Position numbers and translations under genes: made by a program
Notes under the pieces: generated by a model
What the model was told of the DNA's origin: nothing
What the model saw: the letters and a program-made list of their open reading frames with translations, nothing else
Databases searched by the model: none
Assembly (NCBI GenBank): GCA_963664705.1
Contig: OY761556.1
Coordinates: 2,336,001-2,400,000, forward strand
Source: Acidobacteriota bacterium
GTDB lineage: Bacteria; Acidobacteriota; UBA6911
Length of the DNA: 64,000 bases
Reading direction: 5' to 3'
Shown: positions 11,133 to 21,835 of the stretch, in pieces
Layout: each line of letters begins with the position of its first letter
Position numbering within the stretch: the first letter of the stretch is position 1

Positions 11133-11438
11133 CTAACCAATCTCGTCGATCAGGTTGCCTCCGATAATTTTTTCGGCGATTTGTTCCGCCTTGACATTGT
11201 AAGTGCCGCTCTCGATCTGGCTGCGAACCTGATTTACCCGATCTTCCCGAACATCCGGTGTGGACCGAATCATGTCCTCGATACGCGAGTATTCGAGACC
11301 CCGAGTCGACAGTTCAATTCTGTCCGAATCAGAACTCGTTTGTCCGCGTTTCTGAACACTCTCAGACTTCTGCGCAGAGTCGAGCCGCTGCACGCTCTTG
11401 TTCAAGCCTATCAAAGGGGTATTGCCGTTAATCTCCAT
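11133..11438 (-). CDS. flgM: anti-sigma28 factor
   Basis: DRIELS, PDVREDRV...IESGTYNV..EQIAEKII. Confidence 0.95.
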   Translation of the reverse strand: MEINGNTPLIGLNKSVQRLDSAQKSESVQKRGQTSSDSDRIELSTRGLEYSRIEDMIRSTPDVREDRVNQVRSQIESGTYNVKAEQIAEKIIGGNLIDEIG

Positions 11439-11469
11439 ATCTATCCTCGAGAGATTACTCCTGAGTTGC

Positions 11470-11497
11470 TTATCGTCCCTTCGATAATAGCACTTTA
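11470..11497 (-). promoter_or_regulatory. sigma28 promoter for flgM operon
   Basis: minus strand TAAA-N16-GACGATAA. Confidence 0.75.
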
Positions 11498-14271: not shown

Positions 14272-15240
14272 CTATTGGATCTTCACCGACCCTGGACCAA
14301 CGACCTTCGCTTTCAAAGCGGTCGAGAACTCCAGATTGCGAACGACTATGGTTTGACCAAGCTTTCCGTCCTGCTCGGCTTTGGCGGAGGCAACCAACAC
14401 GATGCCGTTTCTTTCGAGACGAAGCTGTACCGTCTCGCCATGCCGCACAAGAAATGGGTCCGTAAAAGCTTCACGCGTGAACAGATCTCCCGGAGAAAAC
14501 CCTCGGCGCGAGACTTTCCCGATCAGTTCATCTGACTGTCGGATATAGGCATTGCGAAAATCCGCAATATCGACGATCGACTCCGCTATATCCTCGGAAG
14601 TGATTGCTATGTTGTAAGGAATTTTCCTGGCTGCAGTAAGAACCCTGGCACGAATGGAAATATCGACATTGATCCAGAAGGAGCGCTGCACTTTTTCTTC
14701 CTGGATAGCCTCGAAATTTACCAACAGCCTGTTTCTGCCGACCGCGGTTGTCCCCGGCCCAAGCCGCAGTTGCGTATCGCCGGGCGGCAGTTCAATTTCG
14801 TTCAGATTGCCGATGGCCCGGATCTCAATCTCGGCTTCTTTCCAAAGAGTCGTTGCGGTGATATAGCCCTTCAGTGCGCCCGCAATGTCATCCGGCCGGA
14901 GGTGCTTTCCCTGCCGTCTGATTTGAACCGCCGGAGCCCCCTCGAAAGACAGCCCGCCACGGACCAAGGAATTCGGGATTTTGGCGTAAATCTGCTGGCG
15001 GCTCCATTCGGAAATCTTGCCGAATTCAGGGGACGGTCCCAGCTCAACACGGCCCAAACGTCCTGCCGCGTCCGAATCAAGTCCATGAATATCTGCGATA
15101 TCGCCCAGACATATGACATCTGAGCCGACGGCAACATCCTGCTTCAGCGCAACCACCAGCGCGTGCGCGGCATTCAATGCCGGAGCAAACAGAATGATCA
15201 AAGCCAATACCGGCAAAACGAAACGTACTGCATGAAGCAA
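14272..15240 (-). CDS. flgA: P-ring assembly chaperone FlgA
   Basis: SAF-like domain, LVRHGETV, AEQDGKLGQTIVVRN; TTG at 15240 with SD GAGGGGAG gives a clean signal peptide (frame stays open to 15510). Confidence 0.88.
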   Translation of the reverse strand: MLHAVRFVLPVLALIILFAPALNAAHALVVALKQDVAVGSDVICLGDIADIHGLDSDAAGRLGRVELGPSPEFGKISEWSRQQIYAKIPNSLVRGGLSFEGAPAVQIRRQGKHLRPDDIAGALKGYITATTLWKEAEIEIRAIGNLNEIELPPGDTQLRLGPGTTAVGRNRLLVNFEAIQEEKVQRSFWINVDISIRARVLTAARKIPYNIAITSEDIAESIVDIADFRNAYIRQSDELIGKVSRRGFSPGDLFTREAFTDPFLVRHGETVQLRLERNGIVLVASAKAEQDGKLGQTIVVRNLEFSTALKAKVVGPGSVKIQ

Positions 15241-15470
15241 GTTGCGAACACTCCCCTCACCCAACCCGATGCGGACAATACTGCGTGGCGAACAAGACAA
15301 GCCCGGAAGTATGCAAATTTGAAAGGGTGCATTCTCCCGGCGAATGAAGAAAGGGGTAAAGCGGAAACCGTTCACACCGGCTATATCTCGAGGAAAAGCC
15401 GATGCGTTCGGAAACGCAAAAGGGATTGGGCAAAGGGTGAGGAGAGAATTCGAAACTTGCCTCATAATAC
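15225..15470 (-). ncRNA. structured RNA element between flgG and flgA
   Basis: 31-nt arms 15435-15465 and 15232-15262 pair at 29/31 positions (3 G-U on the mRNA strand); internal hairpins; 4x CCCUUU. Confidence 0.65.
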
Positions 15471-15472
15471 TC

Positions 15473-16261
15473 TTACCGAACAACGTTATTTGCCTGGGTA
15501 AACATTTCATCCGCGGTGCGGATTACCTTGGAGTTGGCTTCATAAGCCCGCTGGCTAATGATCATATTCACCATCTCCTCGACGACACTGACATTGGATT
15601 GCTCTACATATCCCTGGAGCAAGGTCCCCAGTCCGGTTTCTCCTGCAGTGCCGGTAACGGCATCACCGGAGGACTGAGTGGGAACAAAGAGGCTTTTGCC
15701 GATGTTTTCCAGCCCCGCCGGATTCTGAAATAGCGCCAACTCGATTTTTCCTACCTGCTGGGGTTGGGATTGACCGGACTGCTTTATCGATACGGACCCG
15801 TCGGATCCGATCGTGATTCCGGTCTGATCCTGCGGAATGGTGATTTGCGGTTCGAGCAGATCCCCTTCTGATGTCACAATGTTTCCATCGCGATTCAGGT
15901 GAAAGTTGCCATTCCTGGTATAGGCAATTTGCCCGTTGCTCTGGCGAACCTGGAAAAATCCTTGCCCCTGGATTACGAGATCCAGCGGATTTCCGGTCGA
16001 GGCAAAATCGCCCTGAGTAAAGATAATGTCCGTTGCAACCGCCTTGGTACCGAGTCCGACCTGCAACCCGACCGGGATATCGGTCGTTGCGGTATTGGCC
16101 GCACCCGCCTGTCGAATATTCTGGTAAAGCAAATCCTGAAACTGAGCTTTGCGCTGTTTGTATCCGCTTGTGTTGATGTTTGCGAGATTGTGCGCAATGG
16201 TATCGATATTCAGCTGCTGCGCTTCCATTCCGGTTGCAGCCGTACTCAGTGCTCTTAACAT
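15473..16261 (-). CDS. flgG: distal rod protein
   Basis: AHNLANINTSGYK, FQDLLYQ, EQSNVSVVEEMV; 262 aa. Confidence 0.97.
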   Translation of the reverse strand: MLRALSTAATGMEAQQLNIDTIAHNLANINTSGYKQRKAQFQDLLYQNIRQAGAANTATTDIPVGLQVGLGTKAVATDIIFTQGDFASTGNPLDLVIQGQGFFQVRQSNGQIAYTRNGNFHLNRDGNIVTSEGDLLEPQITIPQDQTGITIGSDGSVSIKQSGQSQPQQVGKIELALFQNPAGLENIGKSLFVPTQSSGDAVTGTAGETGLGTLLQGYVEQSNVSVVEEMVNMIISQRAYEANSKVIRTADEMFTQANNVVR

Positions 16262-17063: not shown

Positions 17064-17080
17064 TAGCAACTTCCGTGCCA
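17064..17080 (-). promoter_or_regulatory. sigma54 promoter of flgF operon
   Basis: TGGCACGGAAGTTGCTA. Confidence 0.9.
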
Positions 17081-17201: not shown

Positions 17202-18086
17202 TTAGCTGCCGCTCTCGTACCCAACGGCCATTGGGTCGTATTTGGTCGATTCCTGGCTATGGGCGACCGGGTGTGCAAACCGGAAGAAGTGGTGATGGGA
17301 TTCCGAAGGAAAATCCAGCCTCACCCAAATGAAATCCTGCACCAGTTCAGCCTGAATATCGAAAGCGCGGAGATTGATGGCCGTTGAGATAATCTCATTC
17401 CCGATTTCAACCAGCTCGCTGAGCGTATCAAAGGTCGGCACACTGGATAGGTCCAGATCTTCCGGCTCGTACCATTGCTCCAGGAGTCGATTGATGGCAG
17501 ATTGATCTCCGATGTATGTAACGATGCCCTTGCGGACCATGCGGCGAATGGCTTCCTGTGCATTGAAGTTGACCGGTGCCGAAACCGCAACTCGAAGCGA
17601 GGTCATTGAATCGTCAAAGCCCACCGGAACGAGCCCGGAGCATTTGGCCACCTTTCCAGGGATCATGCGCACAGCATCGTTTTTTGCCGCTGCGTTCTGC
17701 AGATTGATCAGGGGCAATCCGAATTGCTTGGCAAGCGCGGTTGTGATCTGATGTTCTTCGACAAAACCCAATCGAAGAAGCCACTCGCCGATGCGACCTT
17801 CTTTTCTTTCCGTCTGAAGTTGGATCGCCTGATCCAGTTGCTCTCGCGTAACAAAAGCGGTTTGCATCAGAATCGTCCCCAGTTTCGGCCTGGGAAAGGT
17901 GCGCATATTCCCGTGCTGCAATCTCCGCCACTTTTCTATCAGTTCAGTCTCACAATGAGCACGCAGGCACGCATCGCTGCAAAAGTCCTTGCCTTCATAT
18001 CTGGGAGGACGGCGACGATTGAGAAACAGGCTGAAATCGGATCGGATTTTTGCGCAATCTTTTCGATAACACTGATATTTAGACAT
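17202..18086 (-). CDS. stand-alone MshEN / PilB-N-domain protein with N-terminal Cys cluster, no ATPase
   Basis: tandem motifs KLGTILMQTAFVTREQLDQAIQLQ and RIGEWLLRLGFVEEHQITTALAKQ; CxxxxC...FCSDAC; no Walker A. Confidence 0.8.
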   Translation of the reverse strand: MSKYQCYRKDCAKIRSDFSLFLNRRRPPRYEGKDFCSDACLRAHCETELIEKWRRLQHGNMRTFPRPKLGTILMQTAFVTREQLDQAIQLQTERKEGRIGEWLLRLGFVEEHQITTALAKQFGLPLINLQNAAAKNDAVRMIPGKVAKCSGLVPVGFDDSMTSLRVAVSAPVNFNAQEAIRRMVRKGIVTYIGDQSAINRLLEQWYEPEDLDLSSVPTFDTLSELVEIGNEIISTAINLRAFDIQAELVQDFIWVRLDFPSESHHHFFRFAHPVAHSQESTKYDPMAVGYESGS

Positions 18087-18495
18087 ATTGTTTCACCTGC
18101 ATCTTGCCGGCGGAATAGCCTTCCCCGCCCGTGTATTTACTGAGGTTCAGGATCAGCTCAGCCTCTCCCACGGGAGCTTTGAGACGTTTCACGATATCTT
18201 CCAGAGGGACACCCTGGCGCGAAAGCGCCAATACCTGGTGCCGACGCTCCAGCGGAAGATTGGAATCATGCGAGGGGATGCTTAATTCCATAATCCGTTC
18301 TTCCATTTCTTCGAGGCGGCCGGAGGATTTCTTGTGCGACTGCATTTGTATCTCCGCCAGTTGGCTCACTGCGTCCGAAGCGCGCCGCAGTTCCTGTTCG
18401 AGGGTTTGAATTCGCTGAAGCATTTTTCTCATCGCGCTCCAGCAAAACCAGATACAACCGGCAACCGCGACAAAAACCAGGAAGGTATTTAGCAT
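18079..18495 (-). CDS. bitopic DUF2802/FipA-like membrane protein
   Basis: N-terminal TM, coiled coil, C-terminal LSRQG...GEAELILNL. Confidence 0.65.
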   Translation of the reverse strand: MLNTFLVFVAVAGCIWFCWSAMRKMLQRIQTLEQELRRASDAVSQLAEIQMQSHKKSSGRLEEMEERIMELSIPSHDSNLPLERRHQVLALSRQGVPLEDIVKRLKAPVGEAELILNLSKYTGGEGYSAGKMQVKQYV

Positions 18496-18524
18496 TCCGC
18501 TCTCCTCTGCAGACGCAGGCCAGG

Positions 18525-19388
18525 CTAACGATTCAGATTCGATGAGGCCTGGATTGCCGTCTCAATCTCCATTGCAAGTTCAACCAACACCGGCTCACCA
18601 AGTTTCAGGAACTCGGCCGATGTCTCCTTCTCCAGAACCAGTTTCTCATCTTTTGAGAAACCGACACCCAGCAGGGTCATGAACAAATCGGCCAGGTTGA
18701 TGATGCAAGCCAACTGCTTGTAGGTAGGGGCCGAGAGCGGATCATGATGAAAGCCGACAGCTTCTGCCAGTTGCGGTGGAAAATTCCATTTCCGGGCTAA
18801 TAGAGCGCCTACATGCGCATGGGAGAACCCAAACGATGTGAGCTCGAGATCATTGAAACTGCCATGTTTTCCATACACGGCGCTGATGATTTCGGTATAG
18901 CGGTCACGCAGGTTCTGCAATAAAACGGGCTTGCCGATATCGTGCATCAGGCCGCAAATCAAGGCTTCCTCCATGTCCTGGCCTCTGACTCTCCGCGCGA
19001 TCGCACGTGCAGCCAGGGCAGTTCCCCAGGAATGTTCAGCCATCAGCTTTGCACCCAGATCCTTGGCGGTCTGAAAGACCGACTCTACAGAGGCTGCCAT
19101 CAGGACGGATTTCACCGCATCCATTCCCAGGACGGTTATCGCATGGGAGACCGTGGATACTTCACTTCTCAGGGCATACATGGCCGAATTGACAATCCTC
19201 AGCATCTTGGCCGACAGAGCCTCATCCTTTGAAATCAATAACTGTAGTCTGTAAACCGAAGCATCCGGGTCCATCGCCAGCTCGAGTGCCCTCATGACGG
19301 TGGTCGGCATGGGAGGCAGGTCTGTCACTTTTGCGACAAGAGCATTGAGATTCAGTATTGGTTGAGGGTTGTTTTGAACAGTTGCCAT
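18525..19388 (-). CDS. HDOD domain protein
   Basis: LPPMP, D..LSAKMLRIVNSA, GLMHDIGK, HAHVGALLARKWNFP. Confidence 0.93.
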   Translation of the reverse strand: MATVQNNPQPILNLNALVAKVTDLPPMPTTVMRALELAMDPDASVYRLQLLISKDEALSAKMLRIVNSAMYALRSEVSTVSHAITVLGMDAVKSVLMAASVESVFQTAKDLGAKLMAEHSWGTALAARAIARRVRGQDMEEALICGLMHDIGKPVLLQNLRDRYTEIISAVYGKHGSFNDLELTSFGFSHAHVGALLARKWNFPPQLAEAVGFHHDPLSAPTYKQLACIINLADLFMTLLGVGFSKDEKLVLEKETSAEFLKLGEPVLVELAMEIETAIQASSNLNR

Positions 19389-20767: not shown

Positions 20768-21538
20768 CTAATCCTGTCCGTTTACCTTCCTTAGCTTGGT
20801 CCGAAGCCGCAGCATTGCCTTGGTATGGAGCTGCGACACTCTTGATTCATTGACTCCGAGGACTTTTCCGATTTCCTTCATTGTCAATTCGTCAAAATAA
20901 TAAAGGGACACGACAAGACGTTCTTTTTTGGGCAAGGTATCGATCGCGGTGCTCAGAATCGCCTGGATCTCAGTCTTGTGAAAAACAAAAAACGGATCCA
21001 TCTGCGGCGCATCCGGTACATACTTCACCAGCGGCTCGCTGTTCTTCTCGTCATCCTGAGAGGATAGCTCCTGGAAGCTGCCGAGATTCAATCCCTTGAT
21101 TTGATCTACAAGTTCATAGAACTCTTCAAGTGAGATCTCCATTTCATCGCAGACTTCCTTATCCGTGGCGGGACGGCCCAGGCGCTGCTCGAGCTCCCGA
21201 TACACGCGTTCCAGGTCTTTGCTTTTCTTTCTCAGGGAGCGCGGCGCCCAGTCGAGATTGCGAAGGCTGTCAAGAATGGCACCCTTGATGCGCAGCTCGG
21301 CATAGGTCTTGAATTTCACGCCTCGGTTCGGATCGAATTTCTCGATAGCGTCCAATAAACCGAGAATTCCCGCGCTTACGAGATCATTCAGCTCGACATG
21401 CGATGGCAGTTTGGCGGAGATCCGCTGCGCGATGTATTTGATCTGCGGCAGATGCTCCAGAATAAGTTCGTCCCTTTCGGGATTGGCTGGGATAGGCGGT
21501 GCATACATTTTTTGTTGGCTCGACAATTCCTGCATCAT
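20768..21538 (-). CDS. fliA: flagellar sigma28 factor
   Basis: FKTYAELRIKGAILDSLRNLDWAPRS, ESRVSQLH; ATG 21538 preferred by SD GAGGA. Confidence 0.96.
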   Translation of the reverse strand: MMQELSSQQKMYAPPIPANPERDELILEHLPQIKYIAQRISAKLPSHVELNDLVSAGILGLLDAIEKFDPNRGVKFKTYAELRIKGAILDSLRNLDWAPRSLRKKSKDLERVYRELEQRLGRPATDKEVCDEMEISLEEFYELVDQIKGLNLGSFQELSSQDDEKNSEPLVKYVPDAPQMDPFFVFHKTEIQAILSTAIDTLPKKERLVVSLYYFDELTMKEIGKVLGVNESRVSQLHTKAMLRLRTKLRKVNGQD

Positions 21539-21835
21539 CGTATTCCTCTTGAACAGAGCCACCGTAACGGCCGGCTCCTAGGCTATTCAATTGGCTGTCA
21601 AAGTCTCCCTAAAGAGGATCAGAAGACTTGATGTCCATTCGAGATAATGGCAATGATTCTTGGCTATCGGGAGAGCATCCTTCCTGCTTGGAACGGGATC
21701 TCTCCGTTGGAGGTTGGCAGCGAGTCGGAGTGTATCGGCGACGGCCCGCATCGTATACAACTTCTGTACTGATCGCACCAGGATCCCTCCGAATCTCAAC
21801 TCGCGTGTTTCACTCGATCCTGAATGCGCGTTCAC

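Follow-up and report, generated by a model that had tools for sequence, protein, structure and literature searches.

A structured RNA at the flgG-flgA junction

The stretch of Acidobacteriota DNA analyzed here (the window) is 64,000 nucleotides long and carries a large flagellar gene cluster, within which a structured RNA is flanked by flgG and flgA [Table 1]. Two DNA contig sets, both from one sample that is possibly the window's own source, span the region without joints. The -24/-12 motif lying 5′ of flgF matches the sigma-54-type consensus. Between fliN and flgF (17202-19388) lie genes for an MshEN-type c-di-GMP-binding protein, a 138-residue coiled-coil protein and an HD-domain protein, and the short flgM leader (11440-11470), strongly conserved family-wide, could form a 5-bp hairpin just 5′ of the flgM Shine-Dalgarno (SD) sequence.

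Table 1 Features of the flagellar locus, in window coordinates
Feature	Position	Strand	Remarks
Whole structured RNA, ~234 nt	15232..15465	-	P1, two internal hairpins and three C/U-rich linkers; codons 1-78 of the long flgA frame
P1, 5′ arm	15435..15465	-	First bases are the in-frame flgA ATG (15465-15463), 7 nt past the flgG stop
P1, 3′ arm	15232..15262	-	Near-invariant G-rich octamer (15258-15251) and UUG (15240-15238)
P2, long irregular hairpin	15361..15417	-	Variable sequence, conserved structure; two-sided changes in 17/19 pairs
P3, hairpin	15303..15340	-	Two-sided changes in 12/13 pairs
J1, linker	15418..15434	-	C/U-rich (C+U 72%, 34 sequences)
J2, linker	15341..15360	-	C/U-rich (76%); likeness to the 16S rRNA 3′ tail of the same genome
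J3, linker	15263..15302	-	Two conserved short C-rich repeats
flgA	14272..15465	-	397 codons if started at the upstream ATG; comprises an extension of ~75 residues, a predicted signal peptide and the FlgA chaperone domain
flgG, distal rod protein	15473..16261	-	
Sigma-54-type -24/-12 motif, 5′ of flgF	17066..17080	-	Consensus match
fliA (sigma-28)	20768..21562	-	Name from sequence and context
flgM	11133..11497	-	Own sigma-28-type promoter

The RNA fold is conserved and covaries

Recounting the closing helix P1 (arms 15465-15435 and 15262-15232, minus strand) returned the 29 pairs out of 31 reported in an earlier note on this DNA, namely 26 Watson-Crick and three G-U pairs. Its inner extension is likewise present, but as 4 bp following a 3x1 internal loop rather than as the 5 bp following a 2-nt bulge that had been described, and the enclosed UGCGUU/AACGCA hairpin listed in the same note proved to be species-specific and to overlap the conserved long hairpin P2. 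The 261-nt region folded with a z-score of -6.1 on the mRNA strand versus -3.2 on the opposite strand, and none of 200 shuffles equaled it. Over 42 aligned rows, one of them a duplicate, G-U combinations in P1 outnumbered A-C combinations by 129 to 30, which identifies the mRNA strand as the folded one; with the better fold of that strand, this bears out the proposal that selection acts on RNA.

In keeping with what had been expected of relatives, all three helices covary across the family, with two-sided changes in 13 of the 30 pairs of P1 [see Table 1 for P2 and P3]. In the plain MAFFT alignment, 78.6% of cells were paired versus 38-49% for slid controls, and none of 500 shuffles reached the observed score, the shuffle control being one that ignores kinship among sequences that are not independent, and the tested structure having been drawn from these same sequences. 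The z-scores of P2 and P3 fell below -2 in 27 and 23 of the 34 sequences, respectively. The core of P1 is nearly invariant in sequence, suggesting that something reads it. The unpaired linkers are G-poor, and the CCCUUUC motifs found in the RNA, conceivably slippery sites, are not kept in one clade. An alternative helix between J2 and the 3′ arm of P1, as a riboswitch or two-state leader might form, showed no cross-clade covariation: the pairing is possible in one clade (-20 kcal/mol), but in the other clade foreign arms are better partners than the native one.

A single-copy, family-specific and undescribed RNA

Blastn, approximate matching, a covariance model and nhmmer all found a single copy of the element in the 6.9-Mb genome, which disposes of the dispersed copies that a miniature transposable element (MITE) would have left. 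As predicted, no Rfam 15 family matched the element at E-values up to 10 in the stretches searched; the only hit in this locus (E 7.8) lies on the opposite strand and is chance-level, and a search of 17 loci returned three weak hits, none on the element. The flg-Rhizobiales and Acido-1 motifs, reportedly candidate RNAs that occur close to flagellar genes or in members of the Acidobacteria, would be covered by this negative result insofar as they are Rfam 15 families. Identity with 6S RNA was rejected, there being no RF00013 match and a canonical 6S RNA elsewhere in 50 of the 51 family genomes, as was likeness to a family of pyrimidine-rich palindromic repeats, which is absent from this genome. 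The element is not described in the literature that we found, in which motif tables in supplements could still hold it. The RNA is thus a real, undescribed family.

The element is present in all family genomes with a flgG match (36 of 51), and a covariance model built from 34 sequences detected one strong locus in 41 of the 51. Beyond the family, this model, which may miss distant forms, yielded weak partial matches alone (E 0.003 or worse) in 86 other genomes of the class and none in 149 other genomes of the phylum, G034 being used solely as one of these background genomes. A pattern scan of metagenomes (1/64 parts) recovered two true copies among 115 loci, and viral contigs gave no match to a 22-base arm pattern. 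At four of five loci from outside the family, flgA starts close behind flgG; the fifth (locus L018, genome G025) has some 1.1 kb of unrelated DNA between the flgG stop and flgA, including a small ORF that looks to be of the DUF433 type. The tree of the RNA broadly follows that of fliA. Judged from these comparisons, the element is an insertion specific to the family and inherited vertically.

The RNA lies in frame with flgA

The earlier note had placed the structure in the spacer between flgG and flgA. It is not intergenic: an ATG in the flgA reading frame opens its 5′ arm, which makes the region coding. This ATG was found in all 36 flagellated genomes of the family (34/34 aligned and the remaining two), at 192-213 nt and always a multiple of three from the G-rich octamer in the 34 aligned sequences, and all ten gap runs in the leader alignment are multiples of three as well. 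Along a spanning tree of the observed sequences (1873 differences), no in-frame stop arose versus 41.5 ± 6.2 expected by random placement; the other two frames collected 33 and 49. The leader nonetheless shows dN/dS of 1.10 with dS of 0.21, versus 0.22 and 1.17 for the FlgA C-terminus (13 close pairs). A conserved leader peptide was rejected on account of this ratio near one. A frame that is kept while its codons evolve at dN/dS ~1.1 points to selection on the RNA itself, with ribosomes likely reading through it. The 3′ arm of P1, read in the flgA frame, encodes the arginines that come before the hydrophobic stretch in the signal peptide predicted for FlgA. Comparative evidence thus puts the RNA within a translated frame, and it likely sits parked ahead of the signal peptide.

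The UUG in the 3′ arm, taken in the earlier note together with its SD for the start of flgA, is doubtful in this role. It is kept in 32 of 36 genomes and lost in four, two of which have an in-frame ATG just past the octamer, and it is also gone in a metagenome copy (L135). A basic n-region is the usual feature of Sec signals; lysine or arginine before the hydrophobic stretch is missing from 23 of 34 UUG-started forms, compared to none of 34 long forms and one of 34 FlgI sequences, so that a start in the 3′ arm was found neither fully conserved nor generally followed by a normal signal peptide.

The distance from the flgG stop to the upstream ATG is 5-12 nt in 35 of 36 genomes; G013 has a 122-nt gap, without a new ATG comparable to that of L135. 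In L135, a 147-nt insertion moved the helix away, both old starts are changed, and a new in-frame ATG lies 11 nt past the flgG stop and 147 nt 5′ of the helix, the RNA itself being intact. From this rearrangement, the flgA start is tied to the flgG stop and not to the helix. The new start in the insertion (L135:522-680) lengthens FlgA by 49 more residues.

The RNA is retained where flgA has been lost

Five of the 15 family genomes without a flgG match (G023, G006, G064, G057 and G019), representing at least three lineages, harbor the RNA as an orphan. Searches of these genomes (completeness 71, 98, 95, 100 and 87%) found no FlhA, flagellin, FlgA or CsrA. The orphan RNA is an island bounded at its own helix and located by fliA, with flgA sequence stopping at the 3′ arm; in three of the five the flgA frame is already interrupted within the RNA, and in the other two it ends with the RNA or soon after. 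The P1 core remains paired at 21-22 of 23 positions. Selection is clearest between the sisters G006 and G064, the one species pair that provides the strongest test: their RNAs differ at 9 of 233 positions (~4%; 12/236 with slightly wider ends) versus ~20% both in the flanking spacers (69/353; P ~1e-8) and at four-fold sites (89/425; P ~2e-10).

The RNA is absent at eight other aflagellate fliA loci (G043 and G055 lying outside the locus-level comparison) and is therefore dispensable and not a strict companion of FliA. Some relaxation has also occurred, since orphan branches in the RNA tree are longer than those of their sisters (0.21 in G023, 0.31 in G057 and 0.46 in G019), and P3 is paired at only 6-7 of 13 positions in two orphans, versus a mean of 0.69 in flagellated genomes. 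Even so, an RNA kept in relatives that have no flagella likely has a job of its own, and we regard the five genomes as a good comparative case for a function that would be independent of the host gene flgA.

In four of the five orphans, fliA and the RNA share a strand, with fliA upstream. In the fifth, G057, two opposite-strand ORFs separate fliA from the RNA (L069:1104-3586 in the orientation of the element), one of which (690 aa) opens with an N-terminal motif resembling that of FliM. At loci L067, L068 and L069, a G+C-rich hairpin that has no U tail lies within ~15 nt 3′ of the orphan RNA.

Promoters, FliA and candidate partners

A sigma-54-type motif, by consensus match, precedes flgF in 32 of the 35 flagellated loci parsed (G009 being outside the set). 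G057 retains such a motif 177 nt upstream of its orphan RNA; the other four orphans are without one and would thus need read-through from the fliA operon. Searches for an internal sigma-28 promoter led to its rejection (best score at most 8.2 in 40 loci versus 29 for the flgM promoter), and no sigma-28 promoter-like sequence was apparent in the RNA by eye. Few sigma-28-like promoters scored well in G000. An RNase III gene was present in five of five genomes tested; directly downstream of it in G000 (C1:5254689-5255052), the C-terminal portion of the RNase III model gave two additional short matches.

FliA was detected in 50 of the 51 genomes of the family, for the most part with 76-94% identity; at least 13 of these have no flgG match. 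fliA is often accompanied by flhG and flgM and is frameshifted in G063 and G059. As FliA is kept nearly everywhere, the adjacency of the RNA and fliA may just reflect the survival of both.

Two types of target were rejected. The 9-bp match between the P2 loop and the flgM leader ranks 422nd among 5256 start regions in G000, with a mean z of -0.12 over 33 genomes, and a CsrB/RsmZ-type sponge for CsrA is at odds with the G-poor linkers and with the failure to find CsrA in any of the five orphan genomes. No conserved pairing target of the linkers emerged among 13 genes of the cluster; outside the cluster, the search covered G000 with rough gene calls and a score free of accessibility terms. Matches to the Hfq family were weak only (best E 2.5e-7; G000 and four orphan genomes), and a canonical Hfq may be missing.

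A candidate trans-acting RNA of the FliA circuit

Of the two uses that the earlier note had offered for the helix, that of an RNase III stem releasing a small RNA fits the data best, with cleavage being predicted. Given the sigma-54-type motif and the presence of RNase III, the simplest way to obtain such an RNA would be its release from the operon transcript. The promoter 5′ of flgF would transcribe the RNA, ribosomes re-initiating past the flgG stop would traverse it, and the 75 added residues would go off with the signal peptide, making this a cost-free spot to park an RNA. RNase III would cut the ~30-bp helix, or other nucleases would trim the transcript to the helix, so that each transcript would give either FlgA or the RNA, and the free RNA would connect the sigma-54 tier with the sigma-28 tier.

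That an RNA cut in this manner from the rod operon transcript exerts its effect in trans, within the FliA (sigma-28) circuit, is, in our estimate, an even chance. The FliA circuit was favored because FliA is found in nearly every family genome and, among flagellar regulators, is the one remaining next to the RNA; the link between the two is thus one of co-retention only. As to how the RNA would act, binding to a protein, FliA or FliA-polymerase in the first place, is our tentative suggestion, and base-pairing to targets outside the cluster appears unlikely. A more specific version, in which the RNA would be a 6S-like decoy or anti-sigma RNA for FliA or FliA-polymerase, made from the sigma-54 rod operon, hidden in the expendable front of a signal peptide and able to replace FlgM, stems from the two genomes with the clearest selection, G006 and G064, both of which have FliA and the RNA and no FlgM match; we consider it a long shot.

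Among known RNAs, the closest precedent that we found is FlmE (CJnc230) of Campylobacter jejuni, an 88-98-nt RNA encoded downstream of the flgE coding sequence that pairs with the flgM ribosome-binding site, is released by RNase III from an RpoN-dependent flagellar transcript behind a rod/hook gene, and links the middle and late tiers (PMC11187230). The RNA studied here similarly lies behind a rod/hook gene in a flagellar transcript that is predicted, by its consensus motif, to be RpoN-dependent, and would share with FlmE both the release by RNase III and the connection between tiers. Unlike FlmE as there reported, it is ~230 nt long and translated in frame within flgA, and it has no conserved flgM pairing and is conserved where flgM was not found, so that the flgM target does not carry over. 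By analogy, it would work most like FlmE or like the CDS-internal sRNA described in PMC13501541. The latter also overlaps an mRNA and is produced by processing, as would be the case here; in contrast to it, the present RNA is a lineage-specific insert with codons free of protein-level selection, lies ahead of a predicted signal peptide, showed no sigma-28 promoter directly upstream, and outlives its host gene.

In size range, in the long closing helix joining its ends, in its open centre and in its long apical hairpin, the RNA further resembles 6S RNA (RF00013) and Ms1 RNA (PMC9130861). It differs from both in an extra hairpin and ~100 nt on the 3′ side, and polymerase binding is here a candidate role.

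Alternative readings

The best-surviving alternative, which we nevertheless think rather unlikely, is that the RNA is a site acting in cis, either the point at which RNase III divides the operon into flgFG and flgAHIJ or a Rho-loading site at C-rich linkers that translation normally shields, and that after flagellar loss it was kept as an end-of-operon signal for flhG-fliA. The length of the helix, the C-rich, G-poor linkers, a frame kept only while flgA exists and the position of the RNA downstream of fliA on the same strand in four of five orphans would all suit such a site. Yet processing or termination should not demand 96% identity over 233 nt or the conservation of P2 and P3, and in G057 the RNA is cut off from fliA by opposite-strand ORFs and keeps a promoter motif of its own.

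A second possibility concerns the upstream ATG, which the helix might lock in cis so that access to the start ends once the 3′ arm has been transcribed, or is reserved for ribosomes coming off flgG, limiting the FlgA made per transcript. Positions +4 to +15 are predicted to be 92% paired, the SD ahead of the ATG is weak and variable, the ATG lies close behind the flgG stop in nearly all genomes, and the MS2 maturation-gene leader offers a precedent in that a long-distance helix closes several hairpins over an initiation region (PMC4615214). That leader, as described there, is untranslated and pairs 5′ of its start, unlike the present structure, which is 3′ of the ATG, in frame, and persists without the gene. 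Moreover, selection in genomes without flgA would go unexplained, the start of L135 has moved 147 nt upstream of an intact RNA, and the ATG itself is predicted to be mostly unpaired in 9 of 34 sequences. The lock is thus decidedly unlikely as the function of the RNA, although the predicted pairing of +4 to +15 implies that the helix probably lowers FlgA output whatever its other roles; such damping of initiation is a predicted side effect.

The other use proposed in the earlier note was a rod-to-P-ring checkpoint, whereby ribosomes ending flgG would melt the 5′ arm and free GAGGGGAG and the UUG for initiation of flgA. The octamer is indeed nearly invariant, without two-sided changes and SD-like throughout, and the UUG is kept in most genomes or replaced, in two, by an ATG just past the octamer. 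This reading leaves the frame constraint 5′ of the UUG unexplained, however, and is contradicted by the many UUG-started forms that lack a basic residue before the hydrophobic stretch, as well as by the octamer being predicted to remain mostly paired even with the 5′ arm blocked or forced open. The conserved start is the upstream ATG, not the UUG, and the RNA is conserved where flgG and flgA have been deleted. Since selection persists without flgA, the checkpoint is not the main function, and we view it as very improbable. The trans, cis-site, lock and checkpoint readings are not mutually exclusive.

That the element has no function and is left over from a mobile element bounded by terminal inverted repeats, which its appearance as a family-specific insertion would allow, can hardly be credited in view of its single locus in 41 of 51 genomes, the agreement of its tree with that of fliA and its strand-biased G-U pairs, and of purifying selection, which contradicts the lack of function and not a mobile origin.

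Turning back to the preferred reading of an RNA released from the rod operon transcript, action on FliA would, if true, connect flagellar tiers through an RNA, of which no example from this phylum turned up in the literature found, and could explain why sigma-28 is retained in non-flagellated members. Independently of its partner, this undescribed family comes with a natural experiment in which the host gene was deleted and the RNA stayed. It hides in the probably cleaved N-terminal part of a secreted protein; the reading frame is the sole constraint there, and intergenic screens would miss or misread such a place. More such RNAs could surface from long N-terminal extensions that combine dN/dS near 1, low dS and covariation.

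As a separate observation on repeats, a GTAG-tagged REP-like palindrome recurs ~100 times in G000, in many cases as inverted pairs and in clusters, and the intergenic regions carry several further families of short tandem repeats.
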